Both the position numbers and the translations under genes were made by a program. A stretch of DNA of 7,297 bases from a virus (lineage: Duplodnaviria > Heunggongvirae > Uroviricota > Caudoviricetes): IMG/VR virus record IMGVR_UViG_2698536355_000008. One strand, written 5' to 3'. Positions 354 through 6,571 of the stretch are shown piece by piece (within the stretch, counting starts at the first letter, position 1; the number at the start of each line of letters is the position of its first letter). The notes below the pieces were generated by a model. That model made no database searches. It was not told where the DNA came from and saw nothing but the letters and a program-made list of their open reading frames with translations.

Positions 354-632
354 ATGGCACGCAACGCAAAATATTACAATTCTGATAATTCGCCCGTTCT
401 TGCCTGCACGCACGGGCGGTATTCTCACGCATTCAAGTCTGAATGGTTCCAGCACCCTCCATGCACTGCAGAACAGGCCGAATGGCTGATTCATTCTTAC
501 CGCAGGCGCGGGTTCGAGGTTAAGAAAGCTCTCAGTCTCGACTATCGGCACTGGATAATCTCTGTCAGGCTGCCTTATTCCGAACGCCCACCACGTGCGT
601 CCCGCACTTTCCAGCAACGGATCTGGAGGTAA
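354..632 (+). CDS. Hypothetical 92-aa protein, translationally coupled to the downstream DUF968 gene
   Basis: ATG at 354 is preceded by GGAGA at 343-347 (6-nt spacing). Its TAA stop at 630-632 lies inside the GGAGG Shine-Dalgarno of the next gene and 1 nt before that gene's GTG at 634. It occupies the position that rem holds in Qin, but I cannot confirm identity with Rem. Confidence 0.5.
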   Translation: MARNAKYYNSDNSPVLACTHGRYSHAFKSEWFQHPPCTAEQAEWLIHSYRRRGFEVKKALSLDYRHWIISVRLPYSERPPRASRTFQQRIWR

Positions 633-633
633 C

Positions 634-1683
634 GTGCGGGTATTACTTAGACCTGTTCTGGTGCCTGAGCTTGGGCTGGTGGTCCTTAAGCCGGGCCGTG
701 AATCCATACAGATATTTCATAATCCTCGAGTGCTGGTGGAACCGGAACCAAAAAGCATGCGTAATCTGCCATCCGGAGTCGTTCCTGCCGTTCGCCAGCC
801 GCTGGCGGAAGACAAAACATTGCTGCCGTTTTTTAGTAACGAACGGGTGATTCGTGCTGCTGGCGGCGTTGGCGCATTGTCCGACTGGCTATTACGTCAT
901 GTTACATCCTGCCAGTGGCCTAATGGCGATTACCATCACACTGAAACAGTCATTCACCGTTATGGTACCGGCGCAATGGTGTTGTGCTGGCACTGCGACA
1001 ACCAACTGCGTGACCAGACATCGGAATCACTGGAGCTGCTTGCTCAACAAAATCTGACAGCATGGGTGATTGACGTCATCCGTCACGCAATAAGCGGTAC
1101 GCAGGAGCGGGAATTATCTTTGGCTGAATTATCCTGGTGGGCGGTCTGCAATCAGGTGGTGGATGCACTACCTGAGGCTGTATCGCGTCGTTCGCTGGGA
1201 TTACCAGCGGAAAAAATCTGCTCGGTGTACCGCGAAAGCGACATCGTACCGGGAGAGCAGACCGCCACCAGCATATTGAAACAACGCACAAAAAATCTTG
1301 CACCGTTGCCTTACGCCCACCAGCAACAAAAATCACCACAGGAAAAGACGGTGGTAAGCATCACCGTTGATCCAGAGTCTCCGGAATCTTTCATGAAGCT
1401 GCCTAAACGTCGCCGCTGGGTTAAGGAGAAATACACACGTTGGGTTAAGACACAGCCGTGTGCTTGCTGCGGTATGCCAGCCGACGATCCGCATCATCTG
1501 ATTGGTCACGGGCAGGGCGGAATGGGAACAAAAGCACATGATCTCTTTGTGTTGCCTTTGTGCAGAAAGCATCACAACGAGCTGCATACGGATACAGTGG
1601 CATTTGAAGATAAGTATGGCTCCCAACTGGAGCTGATATTTCGTTTTATCGATCGCGCGCTGGCAATTGGCGTACTGGCGTAA
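634..1683 (+). CDS. ydfU: DUF968-family prophage protein (YdfU-like) with a Cys/His-rich, HNH-like C-terminal motif
   Basis: Long ORF in the track (595..1683). GTG at 634 is in frame and preceded by GGAGG at 625-629, giving 349 aa, which matches my recollection of YdfU length. The C-terminus contains CACCG...DPHH...LCRKHHNELH. It lies immediately upstream of the Q gene, as in Qin. Confidence 0.75.
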   Translation: MRVLLRPVLVPELGLVVLKPGRESIQIFHNPRVLVEPEPKSMRNLPSGVVPAVRQPLAEDKTLLPFFSNERVIRAAGGVGALSDWLLRHVTSCQWPNGDYHHTETVIHRYGTGAMVLCWHCDNQLRDQTSESLELLAQQNLTAWVIDVIRHAISGTQERELSLAELSWWAVCNQVVDALPEAVSRRSLGLPAEKICSVYRESDIVPGEQTATSILKQRTKNLAPLPYAHQQQKSPQEKTVVSITVDPESPESFMKLPKRRRWVKEKYTRWVKTQPCACCGMPADDPHHLIGHGQGGMGTKAHDLFVLPLCRKHHNELHTDTVAFEDKYGSQLELIFRFIDRALAIGVLA

Positions 1684-1696
1684 GTGGAGAACGAGC

Positions 1697-2449
1697 ATGA
1701 ACCTTGAAGCCTTACCAAAATATTACTCCCCAAAATCTCCAAAATTGAGCGATGACGCTCCAGCGACAGGCACCGGTTGTTTAACAATTACGGATGTAAT
1801 GGCAGCGCAGGGGATGGTGCAGTCGAAAGCACCACTTGGGTTGGCCTTATTTCTGGCAAAAGTTGGTGTTCAGGACCCTCAGTTTGCGATTGAAGGCCTG
1901 CTAAATTACGCGATGGCACTGGATAACCCGACATTGAACAAATTGAGTGAAGAAATCCGGTTACAGATTATTCCTTACCTCGTGAGTTTTGCCTTTGCTG
2001 ATTACTCCAGGTCTGCGGCAAGTAAGGCTCGCTGTGAGCATTGTTCAGGTACGGGATTTTATAATGTATTGCGCGAAGTGGTGAAACACTACAGACGCGG
2101 GGAATCTGTAATCAAGGAAGAATGGGTGAAGGAACTATGTCAGCATTGCCATGGTAAGGGCGAAGCCAGCACAGCGTGCAGAGGGTGTAAGGGTAAAGGG
2201 ATTGTTCTGGATGAAAAAAGAACCCGGTTTCATGGCGTACCGGTATATAAGATTTGTGGGCGTTGTAATGGAAACCGGTTTAGTCGTTTACCGACCACGC
2301 TGGCACGACGTCATGTCCAGAAGCTGGTACCAGACCTGACCGATTATCAGTGGTATAAGGGGTATGCGGACGTCATTGGTAAACTGGTAACAAAGTGCTG
2401 GCAGGAAGAAGCATACGCGGAAGCGCAATTGAGGAAGGTGACGAGATAA
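1697..2449 (+). CDS. quuQ: Late-gene antitermination protein Q (QuuQ-like)
   Basis: ATG at 1697 with GGAGAA at 1685-1690 gives 250 aa (the track ORF from 1667 is 260 aa). The protein has four CxxCxG-type motifs (CEHCSGTG, CQHCHGKG, CRGCKGKG, CGRCNGN). Position upstream of the lysis genes fits a Q antiterminator. Family assignment is from memory. Confidence 0.8.
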   Translation: MNLEALPKYYSPKSPKLSDDAPATGTGCLTITDVMAAQGMVQSKAPLGLALFLAKVGVQDPQFAIEGLLNYAMALDNPTLNKLSEEIRLQIIPYLVSFAFADYSRSAASKARCEHCSGTGFYNVLREVVKHYRRGESVIKEEWVKELCQHCHGKGEASTACRGCKGKGIVLDEKRTRFHGVPVYKICGRCNGNRFSRLPTTLARRHVQKLVPDLTDYQWYKGYADVIGKLVTKCWQEEAYAEAQLRKVTR

Positions 2450-2480
2450 ATGATTTTTGCTGAAGATGGCGACATGATGT

Positions 2481-2509
2481 TTGCATTTTTCAAAAAATAT
2501 GGATAAAAT
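2481..2509 (+). promoter_or_regulatory. Candidate sigma70 late promoter (PR'-like) just downstream of Q
   Basis: TTGCAT (2481-2486), 17-nt spacer, TAAAAT (2504-2509), beginning 32 nt after the quuQ stop. This matches the lambda arrangement in which PR' follows Q. Predicted start site near 2516. Confidence 0.4.
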
Positions 2510-2554
2510 TTTTTCAACGATGGGCTTTGTATACCCGACGTTAAGAAAAAGTAG

Positions 2555-2585
2555 AAAACCCGCTGATGAGCGGGTTTTGTGCTTT
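2555..2585. terminator. Intrinsic terminator (tR'-like), probably bidirectional
   Basis: Stem AACCCGC (2557-2563), loop TGATGA, stem GCGGGTT (2570-2576), then a T-run TTTTGTGCTTT. An A-run on the 5' side gives a T-run on the opposite strand. It lies about 40-70 nt downstream of the candidate late promoter. Confidence 0.6.
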
Positions 2586-2870
2586 AAATGGGGCAATGGT
2601 AATGTTGAATCTCATCCCGGGACTCATGTCTGTTAACTTATTATTTAGCTGGTGACTTGGTTATTTGCCTGATGTTTAAAATGTTTTCTTCCAGTACAAT
2701 GTCCCTAAACACAATGAGTCTGCTTATTATATTATTAGCAGAGCTATTACGGCCAAAGTACAGCATAAGCTTTTAAAGCCAATCAACCAGTCATCAAGAC
2801 AGACGGGGTTATTCATAAAAACTCTCCATGTGTGATCCGATGGGGCCTGAAATTAAAGCTTTAATATAGC

Positions 2871-3083
2871 TCATGAAAGGTAAACATTGGCAGCTGAAGG
2901 GCCACGCAGACCATTTATCCGGCAAAATTCCACGCGTAATCCGGTGGTAATTTCTTCTGCATCGCGGAGATTGAGCGCTGAAACATGAAGCTGGACATCG
3001 ATACGACCATCGGATGGGGTGATAAGACCCTTGCCGCTTTTGCCGTCAAAGGTTTTGACAATTCCTGTCATTTTACGGGACAA
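2871..3083 (-). CDS. cspF: Cold-shock-domain protein, CspF/CspH subfamily
   Basis: 70-aa product [26 protein letters not shown]...[10 protein letters not shown] matches the CspF/CspH subfamily from memory. The first codon is TTG at 3081-3083, with TAAGGAA upstream on the minus strand. It is divergent from cspB, as in Qin. Confidence 0.85.
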
Positions 3084-3216: not shown

Positions 3217-3223
3217 GATTGCG

Positions 3224-3383
3224 TCGGTTTGAAGAACAGACGATATACGAAGTAGTTTACTAAAGCAGTTCTCATTTCAGGTGTTATTCACTTATTCCTT
3301 CTTTGAGTCTCTCCAATTAAGTACGAAGTCGTTTCTGTTATGCAAACCATTTATGCCGAAAGGCTCAAGTTAAGGAATGTAGA
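3224..3383 (+). promoter_or_regulatory. cspB long 5' untranslated leader with cold-box-like and upstream-box elements
   Basis: About 160 nt lie between the predicted start site and the ATG. GGTTTGAAGAACAGACGATATACG (3226-3249) resembles the cspA cold box. GCCGAAAGGC (3355-3364) is identical to the conserved element in the cspA leader. Confidence 0.55.
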
Positions 3384-3599
3384 ATGTCAAATAAAATGAC
3401 TGGTTTAGTAAAATGGTTTAACGCTGATAAAGGTTTCGGCTTTATTTCTCCTGTTGATGGTAGTAAAGATGTGTTTGTGCATTTTTCTGCGATTCAGAAT
3501 GATAATTATCGAACCTTATTTGAAGGTCAAAAGGTTACCTTCTCTATAGAGAGTGGTGCTAAAGGTCCTGCAGCAGCAAATGTCATCATTACTGATTAA
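3384..3599 (+). CDS. cspB: Major cold-shock protein CspB
   Basis: 71-aa product [38 protein letters not shown]... carries the RNP1-like (KGFGFI) and RNP2-like (VFVHF) motifs. Shine-Dalgarno TAAGGAA precedes the ATG at 3384. Confidence 0.9.
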
Positions 3600-3880
3600 A
3601 ATTCATCGCTCGTCTGTATACGATAACGAAGAAGGCTGATGCCTGAGTAGAGATACGGACAGAGTAGTGAATATTGGATCTCTTTAATAAAAAGTAAGGA
3701 GGTCCAATACATGAAACAATGGCTAGCATATTTGGCAAAATCTTAATCAGGAAAAGTATGCTAACCATTGTGGTGAAGTGCAGGTTTGCTGCATGAATAG
3801 TTTTACAGCAGAAGCTAACTGCTGGCATGGCAAAACAAAGTGCGTAAGTGGATGACTCCCACAAAAAGCACCACAATCTC

Positions 3881-3906
3881 AAACCCGCTCAGGCGGGTTT
3901 TTTATT
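3881..3906. terminator. Intrinsic terminator, bidirectional, shared by the convergent cspB region and ynfU
   Basis: Stem AAACCCGC (3881-3888), loop TCAG, stem GCGGGTTT (3893-3900), then a T-run. An A-run precedes it. It lies 57 nt beyond the ynfU stop on the minus strand and about 280 nt beyond the cspB stop on the plus strand. Confidence 0.7.
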
Positions 3907-6119: not shown

Positions 6120-6270
6120 GGTGTTCTGGTTTGTTACAAATTTATCTGAAGCAGTCATTGTTATAATTTTATTATTTGTACCTCTTGAGATTTCCTTGTT
6201 GGTTTTTCTCTCTGATATTTTTTTTCGGACCATTCTGCCCAAGGGCTAATTTCTTCAAAAGGTAATAATT

Positions 6271-6483
6271 ATGTCTAACAAAATGACTGGTTTAGTGAAA
6301 TGGTTTAACCCTGAAAAAGGTTTTGGTTTCATCACGCCGAAAGATGGCAGCAAAGATGTGTTTGTCCATTTCTCAGCAATTCAGAGCAACGATTTCAAAA
6401 CATTAACTGAGAATCAGGAAGTTGAATTTGGTATTGAGAACGGACCTAAAGGTCCTGCCGCTGTTCATGTAGTGGCGCTTTGA
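6271..6483 (+). CDS. cspI: Cold-shock protein CspI
   Basis: 70-aa product [38 protein letters not shown]... with the cold-shock-domain RNP motifs. Its position after the spanin genes matches Qin. Confidence 0.9.
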
Positions 6484-6571
6484 GGTAGACAATATTACAA
6501 ACCATATTCACTTTAGATGCCCGTGTTGTCATGGTTCCCAGTATAGAACATCATCTTTTGATGTTTCTGAC

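Follow-up and report, generated by a model that had tools for sequence, protein, structure and literature searches.

Does a gene for a Q-like antiterminator with four CxxCxG cysteine motifs, followed closely by a promoter and a strong hairpin, form a late-gene switch of the lambda type, and is its cysteine-rich segment peculiar to this protein or a feature of its family? The locus that raises these questions, positions 1,697 to 2,585, lies in a 7,297-nt stretch of viral-record DNA (hereafter the window), the whole of which is 100% identical to the Qin prophage of E. coli K-12 (MG1655). The gene order there is ydfU-ydfT-cspF, and ydfT is annotated as ‘antitermination protein’. Positions 1697-2585 make up the late-gene regulatory cassette of this defective lambdoid prophage. 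Our main reading, to which we assign a probability of roughly 85%, is that the cassette is composed of quuQ (ydfT), PR', a Q-binding element (QBE), a pause element and tR', that it works in the manner of lambda Q, and that its arm of tandem ribbons is the standard form of the family. The gene already bears a name in K-12 and the cassette as read here follows the textbook lambda Q mechanism; there is little novelty in either.

The quuQ reading frame runs on the plus strand from an ATG at 1697 to a stop codon at 2447-2449 (1697..2449) and encodes a protein of 250 residues. QuuQ matches Pfam PF03589 with an E-value of 3.6e-54 (181 bits against a cut-off of 26.7), is covered end to end by PHROG 127 ‘anti-termination protein Q-like’ (E 2.9e-105), and is aligned by phmmer with the lambda Q structure 7ubm_Q at E 4.6e-36. 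Its AF2 model, which has a pLDDT of 74, matches 7ubn_Q in Foldseek (E 6.6e-12, TM 0.70) and superposes on 7ubn_Q and 7ubm_Q with TM values of 0.70-0.75 normalised to the target. Both the four-helix ‘body’ with its helix-turn-helix (HTH) and a zinc-ribbon ‘arm’ with two CxxC knuckles can be recognised in the predicted structure. Together with the identity to MG1655, the PF03589 and lambda Q structure matches bear out the suggestion, made from the letters alone in an earlier note on this DNA, that the gene encodes a Q antiterminator, and they place it in the Q-lambda family of late-gene antiterminators. The same note had pointed to Q82, Q21 and QStx for comparison, which was misdirected for a Q-lambda-family protein: PF06530 and PF06323, the Q21 and Q82 families, respectively (PMC9388147), are not among the Pfam matches of QuuQ at E-values up to 0.1.

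Lambda Q, represented with PR'/QBE/SDPE/tR' by structures 4MO1 and 7UBJ-7UBN, belongs to the same PF03589 family and has the same body fold as QuuQ, with an overall identity of 33-41% depending on the alignment method. The two proteins are further alike in an N-terminal nozzle segment, a C-terminal VTR and a zinc-ribbon arm, which in QuuQ corresponds to motifs 3 and 4. The N-terminal ~44 residues of QuuQ (1697..1828, plus strand) are homologous to the ‘torus/nozzle’ segment that lambda Q places at the RNA-exit channel. Of the 42 invariant columns of the family alignment, 18 fall within residues 1-44, including D33, V34, M35, A36, A37 and G39; towards the C-terminus, L245 and T249 are likewise invariant across the family. 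The torus of lambda Q comprises residues 1-44, and antitermination is abolished by V6A and G39A; the N-terminal invariants of QuuQ, as well as L245 and T249, match lambda residues at which mutation kills antitermination (PMC9388147). Residues 1-27 of the QuuQ model are disordered, with pLDDT values below 50, and the N-terminus of free lambda Q is disordered too.

Downstream of the gene, the PR' -35 hexamer TTGCAT (2481..2486) starts 32 nt past the quuQ stop codon and is followed on the plus strand by a 17-nt spacer, TTTTCAAAAAATATGGA (2487..2503), the -10 hexamer TAAAAT (2504..2509) and, after a further 6 nt, the element AACGATGGG (2516..2524). This layout is in identical register to lambda PR', with the same spacer length and the same distance from the -10 to the pause element. 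The -35 hexamer takes the place of lambda TTGACT and of the TTGCAT annotated as the pR' -35 of phi80, the -10 hexamer takes that of lambda TAAATT, and AACGATGGG is the same 9-mer as the sigma-dependent pause element (SDPE) of lambda, whose role is described elsewhere (PMC9388147). It contains the -10-like AACGAT, and the start of transcription is predicted at its first base, A2516. A consensus promoter scan of the window returned 14 sites against 14.4 expected in shuffled sequences, which is chance level; the case for a real promoter is therefore its register-exact homology to lambda PR' and its conservation across genera, not its match to the consensus.

Both this layout and the terminator are kept, together with (C/T)TTGCA at the -35, in 11 loci of the Qin type that come from 9 genera and have Q proteins of 63-94% identity, whereas the flanking intergenic DNA diverges. 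The spacer blocks TTC(A/G)(A/G)AAA and TGG are kept in Qin-type loci as well, and AACG.TGG is invariant in lambda, P22, phi80, HK225, SF6, mEp460 and Qin. On these grounds, the sigma70 promoter TTGCAT-17-TAAAAT proposed in the earlier note is supported, as is the pause site that it expected downstream, and homology provides a good basis for the start that it predicted near 2516. In lambda, the QBE is located in the PR' spacer, between the -35 and -10 hexamers (PMC9388147), and in the record of phi80 a Q site is annotated at the place equivalent to the Qin spacer. By homology, the Qin spacer, with its upstream TTCAAAAA block and downstream TGG block, is a candidate Q-binding element; its upstream half differs from that of lambda.

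The cassette ends in tR' (2555..2585, plus strand), an intrinsic terminator with a 9-bp stem and a 6-nt loop, AAAACCCGC-TGATGA-GCGGGTTTT at 2555-2578, followed by GTGCTTT and its U-tract. No other hairpin in the window is as strong, and the 70-nt leader that contains it has a folding energy of -29.7 kcal/mol, with z = -6.6 relative to shuffled sequences. The terminator is bidirectional: the hairpin scan listed it on the minus strand only, but U-tracts are actually present on both strands. With +1 at A2516 it extends from +40 to +70, as had been estimated, and 10 other Qin-type loci have a hairpin and T-tract at the same place with differing stems (CCCGC/GCGGG versus CCTCGC/GCGGGG).

A leader of this size had been called unusually short, which proves to be wrong. 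The terminator ends 53-69 nt past the start of the pause element in P22, phi80, HK225, a Proteus phage, an Stx2a phage and all Qin-type loci examined, so that this is the usual length, and among the loci compared a long 6S-type leader occurs only in lambda and SF6. The lambda 6S RNA is 194 nt long, compared with a leader of ~65 nt in Qin. For phi80 and HK225, the phage records already annotate the terminator of a short PR' leader, at about +46 to +74 in the former and +29 to +55 in the latter. In P22, PR' and a terminator likewise follow the gene of a Q-lambda-family protein, gp23, and the terminator ends about 57 nt past the pause-element start; unlike QuuQ, gp23 has two motifs in its 207 residues and is almost identical to lambda Q, and short leaders thus occur with the short Q too. 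K-12 and many other E. coli are predicted to make a short PR' RNA that is terminated constitutively.

If the cassette works as lambda does, RNA polymerase would start at about A2516 and would pause within the first ~13-17 nt as the -10-like AACGAT is bound once more by sigma region 2. If Q is absent, transcription would terminate at the 2555-2578 hairpin, giving a leader RNA of ~63-70 nt. With Q, the HTH body and the zinc-ribbon arm would bind the promoter spacer, Q would then load onto the paused complex, and its N-terminal ~44 residues would refold at the RNA-exit channel into a nozzle, which keeps the terminator hairpin from forming.

A feature that QuuQ has and lambda Q does not is an extra module of ~43 residues with two more Cys pairs. 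Its sequence does contain, as claimed, four CxxCxG motifs compared with two in lambda Q: CEHCSGTG (residues 113-120), CQHCHGKG (148-155), CRGCKGKG (161-168) and CGRCNGNR (187-194), the fourth lacking the final Gly and ending in R. The eight motif cysteines are invariant or nearly so in 27 homologues of 64-94% identity. By alignment and spacing, motifs 3 and 4 (residues 161-194; 2177..2278, plus strand) are homologous to the zinc-ribbon arm of lambda Q, as lambda C118-C147 can be aligned with them (C118/C121/C144/C147) at the same 26-residue spacing. The lambda Q arm, residues 114-152, touches QBE positions 11-13 (PMC9388147), and residues 161-197 of QuuQ carry a net charge of +8. The extra module, here termed ribbon A (residues 113-155; 2033..2161, plus strand), is comprised of motif 1, a β-hairpin (121-131/137-147) and motif 2, as defined by alignment and DSSP of the AF2 model. 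In alignments with lambda Q it stands out as an insertion of 47-66 aa directly after DY(S/C)RSAA, and across homologues its cysteines are kept while the length of its hairpin varies.

The four-motif arm, noted earlier as more elaborate than the single zinc finger of lambda Q, is not peculiar to this gene but the majority form, as four Cys pairs are found in 30 of the 35 full-length representatives of 50%-identity clusters and also in phi80 and HK225. Judged by these sequence clusters, the four-Cys arm is the family norm and lambda Q a reduced minority form, such that the structural paradigm, lambda Q, stands for no more than about one in seven sequence clusters. The diversity of homologues comes from phage tblastn, a genome scan and a search of representatives; two scans of viral contigs brought up nothing but close copies, nearly identical to QuuQ or to lambda Q, and so added no diversity. 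Among the solved structures searched the four-Cys arm is absent, all those of the Q-lambda family being of the lambda form with two Cys pairs, and we found no test of the role of the four-Cys arm in the literature. The closest named counterparts in architecture, phi80 gp17 (Q80) and HK225 Q, have four Cys motifs in the same order as QuuQ, with spacings of 13 residues from motif 2 to motif 3 and of 25-26 from motif 3 to motif 4, and the same kind of variable hairpin between motifs 1 and 2, the third motif of phi80 Q being CxC. They differ from QuuQ in being only 36-41% identical to it, in their longer inserts (269-271 aa in all) and in their QBE sequences. The biochemistry of Q80, lambda versus phi80 Q, was reportedly described by Guo and Roberts in 2004, a study cited in PMC9388147.

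How the four motifs pair is suggested by three observations taken together: the homology of motifs 3 and 4 to the lambda ribbon, the pattern of spacings, and the AF2 secondary structure. The spacings are 35, 13 and 26 residues in QuuQ and, over the 30 four-Cys cluster representatives, 14-63 between motifs 1 and 2, near 13 between motifs 2 and 3, and 25-26 between motifs 3 and 4. DSSP assigns to the AF2 model, which is of medium confidence, two consecutive strand-knuckle-hairpin-knuckle-strand units. These observations favour the pairing of motif 1 with 2 and of motif 3 with 4. Motifs 1 and 2 with their hairpin would then most likely be a second zinc ribbon, in tandem with that of motifs 3 and 4 (ribbon B), which would give QuuQ a bulkier arm, and we infer that ribbon A also binds zinc. 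Comparing ribbons A and B by BLASTP revealed nothing significant in common apart from the Cys motif itself (E 0.06), and thus lends no support to a recent tandem duplication.

The four motifs could instead be a genuine DnaJ-type cysteine-rich domain, with interleaved zinc centres (motif 1 with 4 and 2 with 3) in a V-shaped hairpin and possibly chaperone or thiol-redox activity, which we consider very unlikely. The DnaJ-type spacing ascribed to QuuQ in the earlier note holds at the level of the motif, as four CXXCXGXG-type repeats are shared with the DnaJ cysteine-rich domain and the anti-TRAP motif, and Pfam DnaJ_CXXCXGXG (PF00684) matches residues 148-193 with 35.4 bits, above its cut-off of 32.7. 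QuuQ also has weak matches to DnaJ and anti-TRAP models, and its spacing of 13 between motifs 2 and 3 is similar to that of the anti-TRAP zinc site. The spacings themselves do not hold, as the 35/13/26 of QuuQ are unlike those of DnaJ, which are about 17/22/14. DnaJA2 is the first Foldseek match outside the Q family, but at E 0.68 it is not significant, and the DnaJ equivalog models score 18-23 bits on QuuQ, far under their cut-offs of 338-585. The J domain and G/F region of DnaJ are absent, with no J-domain match in Pfam or NCBIfam. Interleaving is also argued against by the homology of motifs 3 and 4 and their intervening segment to the single ribbon of lambda Q, which is itself one zinc site (PMC9388147), by the self-paired β-hairpin between motifs 1 and 2 in the AF2 model, and by a segment of 14-63 residues between motifs 1 and 2 that, against a fixed 25-26 between motifs 3 and 4, is hard to fit into one interleaved hairpin. 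The evidence thus favours tandem over interleaved ribbons. What a second ribbon might do bears on one difference from lambda in the promoter region: the -35-like TTGACT that lies beside the lambda pause element, as an anchor for sigma region 4, is absent in Qin, which has TTTTTT instead, and the details of Q loading may therefore differ from those of lambda. The anchor is shared by lambda and P22 and lacking in the long-arm loci, a correlation that we do not claim, as the short form is effectively one clade (lambda and P22) and offers no independent replicate. One extension of the tandem reading holds that the double-ribbon arm of the majority is possibly ancestral and that its extra ribbon makes a contact, be it with sigma region 4, with RNA polymerase or with the DNA that separates the two QBE half-sites, replacing the TTGACT anchor. 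We judge this unlikely; were it true, Q loading in most family members would be mechanistically unlike the lambda paradigm.

Two further alternatives concern what the cassette does rather than what it is. It is possible, although somewhat unlikely, that the cassette is a fossil, its features intact by descent and its control of late genes lost in K-12, with the hairpin serving mainly to terminate the convergent cspF transcript. Qin is a defective, cryptic prophage, cspF and a small ORF, both on the minus strand, run towards the hairpin, which the scan scored on that strand, and pseudogenised copies of quuQ are known, such as one (L025) with a 67-aa reading frame; moreover, a full-text literature search found no functional study of quuQ/ydfT. 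Yet quuQ has an intact reading frame that recurs unchanged in very many genomes, and its pN/pS of 0.11 relative to the copy in the plaque-forming phage mEp460 argues against a fossil, so that quuQ looks maintained. All of the cis elements match those of active phages, with the same Q at 94% identity and the same PR'-tR' in mEp460 and in Stx2c-converting phages (named so by record). The hairpin also stands at the same position in loci without cspF, which indicates that its role as tR' came first. Alternatively, the terminated PR' leader of ~65 nt may be a trans-acting small RNA like StxS, from the PR' of a Shiga-toxin phage, a reading that we find highly improbable. StxS demonstrates that constitutively terminated PR' transcripts can turn into Hfq-dependent regulators (PMC7547250), and the Qin leader has a stable terminator hairpin at its end and a conserved 5' stem; however, the leader matches no Rfam family, even at permissive thresholds, and Qin-type loci show little conservation in the stretch from +28 up to the hairpin. 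Like StxS (PMC7547250) and the lambda 6S RNA, the Qin leader is predicted to be a constitutive PR' transcript ending at tR' without Q, but the comparison is one of transcript type, not of sequence, and the 258-nt transcript that gives rise to StxS belongs to a different phage.

Under the lambda-like reading of the cassette, a QuuQ-type Q would bear on the expression of the Stx2c toxin if the toxin genes sit in the late operon, as in other Stx phages. In K-12, cspF (on the opposite strand), cspB and ynfU interrupt the late operon between the quuQ cassette and the lysis genes, which weighs against the lambda-like reading as far as the output of read-through in K-12 is concerned. Elsewhere in the window, Rfam identifies cspA thermoregulators and a Trp_leader match at chance level.

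Positions 1600-2900 of the window agree with E. coli K-12 MG1655 at every base (100% identity). Of 5426 complete E. coli genomes, 3357 contain a match to this segment, and in 1354 of them the match extends across 80% or more of it. In MG1655, rem and ydfU (DUF968) come before ydfT, which is annotated 'antitermination protein'; after it lie a small ORF and cspF, both in opposite orientation, followed by cspB, ynfU and the lysis genes essD, ydfR, rrrQ and rzpQ. We take this to be late-region DNA of Qin, a defective lambdoid prophage in which ydfT also goes by the name quuQ. The quuQ ORF runs from an ATG at 1697 to a stop codon at 2447-2449 and encodes a 250-aa protein, QuuQ, whose proposed identity as a Q antiterminator was borne out by a match to PF03589, 'Antitermination protein Q' (E 3.6e-54); the Q21 and Q82 family models gave no match in the Pfam search. 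Among solved structures, QuuQ matches lambda Q best (7UBM chain Q, E 4.6e-36), in an alignment of two pieces: lambda Q 1-125 falls on QuuQ 1-120 and lambda Q 117-207 on QuuQ 160-250. The first Cys motif of lambda is thereby aligned twice, once with motif 1 and once with motif 3.

The four CxxCxG motifs, within residues 113-194, are exactly as first described: CEHCSGTG (motif 1, residues 113-120), CQHCHGKG (motif 2, 148-155), CRGCKGKG (motif 3, 161-168) and CGRCNGNR (motif 4, 187-194). The earlier note had regarded this domain as more elaborate than the single zinc finger of lambda Q; four Cys pairs are found in 30 of 35 full-length representatives with a canonical ribbon, the other five having two. 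These were drawn from a search, made without a profile, of 1.84 billion representatives clustered at 50% identity, in which only 209 relatives turned up. A relative is also encoded in 250 records of the phage collection, and in an evenly spaced sample of these the match spans 714-819 nt (the long form) in about half and 621 nt (the lambda form) in the rest. Long forms include those of phi80, HK225, SF6, mEp460 and Stx2c- and Stx2a-converting phages, as well as phages of Klebsiella, Erwinia, Yersinia and Proteus; nearly all those examined carry four Cys pairs, the third sometimes being CxC, and an Erwinia phage has only three by pattern search. Across 27 QuuQ-type proteins, which represent many genera of enterobacteria, all eight Cys are invariant or nearly so. 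Given that four Cys pairs predominate among long forms and representatives, and that QuuQ aligns over its full length with the 253-position PHROG 127 profile, which lambda Q matches in two pieces, lambda Q is a reduced minority form of the Q-lambda family. In a natural variant from Salmonella (P0013, 221 aa), the stretch between motif 1 and the HGKG of motif 2 is cleanly deleted, which leaves three Cys pairs and illustrates how deletion between repeated CxxCxGxG motifs could yield shorter arms, such as that of lambda. The quuQ cassette is otherwise unremarkable: the gene is known and its system well understood. What interest remains lies in this common four-Cys arm, of which the solved structures searched offer no example, lambda Q being the only family member among them, and for whose role we found no test.

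In the cysteine-rich domain of DnaJ, the zinc centres are interleaved, motif 1 with 4 and 2 with 3. The DnaJ-type likeness proposed for QuuQ is real at the motif level, where the Pfam model DnaJ_CXXCXGXG scores 35.4 bits (cut-off 32.7 bits), and has been mentioned briefly for a phage protein that resembles lambda Q and has two of these motifs (PMC5313236). As a description of the domain, however, interleaved centres are less favoured than two tandem zinc ribbons, ribbon A (motifs 1 and 2) and ribbon B (motifs 3 and 4), to which we assign a probability of roughly 0.6-0.7 on sequence comparison and modelling. In a multiple alignment including lambda, phi80, HK225 and SF6, the entire zinc ribbon of lambda falls on motifs 3 and 4 with equal 26-residue spacing, while motif 1, the hairpin and motif 2 form a 47-66-residue insertion directly after the conserved DY(S/C)RSAA; motifs 3 and 4 and the basic segment between them are homologous to a ribbon that is self-contained in lambda Q, and residues 161-197 of QuuQ carry a net charge of +8. 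Among cluster representatives, only the spacing of pairs 1-2 varies widely (14-63 residues, median 43), whereas pairs 2-3 (13 residues, range 11-15) and 3-4 (25-26, range 23-28) are nearly fixed, as fits a hairpin tip and not a leg of an interleaved fold.

An AF2 model of QuuQ (27 homologues as input; mean pLDDT 74) likewise argues against interleaving, its DSSP assignment containing two consecutive strand-knuckle-hairpin-knuckle-strand units with a self-paired hairpin, 121-131/137-147. The model superposes on lambda Q of the RNAP-loading complexes (7ubn_Q, E 6.6e-12, TM 0.70; 7ubm_Q, TM 0.75), and its closest structural match outside Q, DnaJA2, is not significant (E 0.68). The two putative tandem ribbons are alike only in the motif, as BLASTP of one against the other finds nothing past it (E 0.06), so that a recent duplication is not supported as their origin. 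Ribbon A is near neutral in QuuQ (+1 vs a family median of +4), and this charge, together with its variable length, suggests a protein contact or spacer rather than base-specific reading of DNA.

In the multiple alignment, the N-terminal ~44 residues rank with the best-conserved stretches of the family, D33, V34, M35, A36, A37 and G39 being invariant. In lambda Q, this segment refolds with NusA to form a torus, which constricts the exit channel for RNA; the substitutions V6A and G39A in this segment abolish antitermination (PMC9388147).

A consensus promoter scan alone was uninformative (14 sites vs 14.4 expected in shuffles). The sigma70-like late promoter (PR') suggested previously is present on the plus strand, with TTGCAT at 2481-2486, a 17-nt spacer and TAAAAT at 2504-2509, in a register identical to that of lambda PR': lambda reads TTGACT, 17 nt, TAAATT, TGACTC, AACGATGGG, and the window TTGCAT, 17 nt, TAAAAT, TTTTTC, AACGATGGG. 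Lambda Q loads at a sigma-dependent pause element that resembles a -10 hexamer, AACGAT (PMC9388147). By analogy with the lambda register, transcription would start at A2516, in agreement with the earlier guess of a start near 2516 and a pause site. In the GenBank record of phi80, annotated counterparts of the -35, Q-binding site, -10 and a terminator lie within ~85 nt; that of HK225 marks the terminator.

We compared 11 Qin-type loci, with a QuuQ-like Q and PR'-terminator region, from Escherichia, Enterobacter, Mangrovibacter, Kosakonia, Phytobacter, Atlantibacter, Scandinavium, Buttiauxella and an 'Enterobacter pulveris' record. Their Q proteins are 63-94% identical, and the blocks CA(T/C)GATGCTTGCA, TTC(A/G)(A/G)AAA, TGG-TA(G/A)(G/A)AT, AACGATGGGC.TTGTAT and CGTT are kept within diverging DNA. 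Directly upstream of the -35, CATGATG (2473-2479) belongs to a CA(T/C)GAT(G/A) block common to lambda and P22 (GCATGATA) and all Qin-type loci, despite only ~33-41% identity between the two groups of Q proteins. When Q loads, sigma region 4 docks on a -35-like TTGACT adjoining the pause element (PMC9388147). This TTGACT is present in lambda (1082-1087 of locus L002) and P22, both with a short Q, whereas Qin has TTTTTT at 2510-2515 and the other long-arm loci show only 2-4 of 6 matches to TTGACA by our own count. The missing anchor may be linked to the different arm, but the comparison includes only one short-form clade.

The strong intrinsic terminator expected after PR' (tR') is present as a hairpin at 2555-2578 (AAAACCCGC/TGATGA/GCGGGTTTT) followed by GTGCTTT, and the 70-nt RNA that begins at 2516 has a folding energy of -29.7 kcal/mol (z = -6.6 against shuffles). 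Hairpin and T-tract are kept in the 11 Qin-type loci with differing stems (CCCGC/GCGGG vs CCTCGC/GCGGGG), as would be expected if selection maintains the structure. The stem is followed by T-runs on either strand, which is why the scan listed the hairpin on the minus strand only; these runs and the convergent transcription of cspF (2871-3083, minus strand) indicate that 2555-2585 is probably a bidirectional terminator, whose tR' role is primary, as the hairpin occupies the same place in loci without cspF. The leader had been called unusually short, but the terminator ends 53-69 nt past the start of the pause element in most loci compared (Qin, mEp460, phi80, HK225, P22, a Proteus phage, a Stx2a phage and all genomic Qin-type loci), so both supposedly unusual features, leader and motifs, are family norms. 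Only lambda and SF6 have a long 6S-type leader, and that of P22 is short although its Q is of the short lambda type.

AACG at 2516-2519, the predicted first four transcribed bases, is complementary to CGTT at 2539-2542. A CGTT-type tetramer complementary to the leader 5' end and starting at +17 to +24 occurs in 21 of 23 diverse PR' leaders, including lambda (L002, 1088-1110), against a mean of 3.9 and a maximum of 11 in shuffles, and altered 5' ends have matching altered partners in Erwinia (AACA/TGTT) and Yersinia phage YeP3 (AAGG/TCTT). The pairing could form a conserved 5' stem of the leader RNA; alternatively, CGTT could be a DNA element at the positions where Q-modified complexes arrest, 24-28 nt in lambda (PMC4005639).

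QuuQ is a Q-lambda-family protein in identity and fold, with homologous and conserved cis elements. By homology to lambda Q, its HTH body and basic ribbon B would bind the PR' spacer, Q would load on the sigma-paused complex, its N-terminus would form the nozzle, and read-through of tR' would follow. In the window the quuQ ORF is intact, its pN/pS against phage mEp460 is 0.11 and the cis elements all match those of active phages; against activity, Qin is defective and its late operon is interrupted by csp genes. Our literature search found no functional study of quuQ. Pseudogenised copies occur as well, an apparent example being that of E. coli ECGI0523 (locus L025), where the quuQ frame breaks after 67 codons and the downstream DNA is still quuQ-like.

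Upstream, ydfU (595-1683, plus strand; DUF968/HNH-like) stops 13 nt short of quuQ. A member of the ydfU family is found directly upstream of Q in YeP3 as well and, with rusA in between, in a Stx2a phage, which suggests a conserved module. Downstream, a small annotated ORF (~2727-2816, minus strand) lies between the tR' hairpin and cspF, and Rfam cspA thermoregulator matches on the plus strand cover the 5' UTR and coding region of cspB (3223-3615, 158.8 bits) and cspI (6125-6510, 112.8 bits), which are cold-shock morons inserted into the prophage late region. A second strong intrinsic terminator follows cspB at 3881-3900 on the plus strand (AAACCCGC-TCAG-GCGGGTTT, then TTTATT), overlapping an Rfam Trp_leader match at chance level (E 0.78). 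The E. coli quuQ-PR' region recurs with 99% identity in a contig labelled 'MAG: Veillonella parvula' (L012, JAGZPX010000007.1), almost certainly a binning contaminant.
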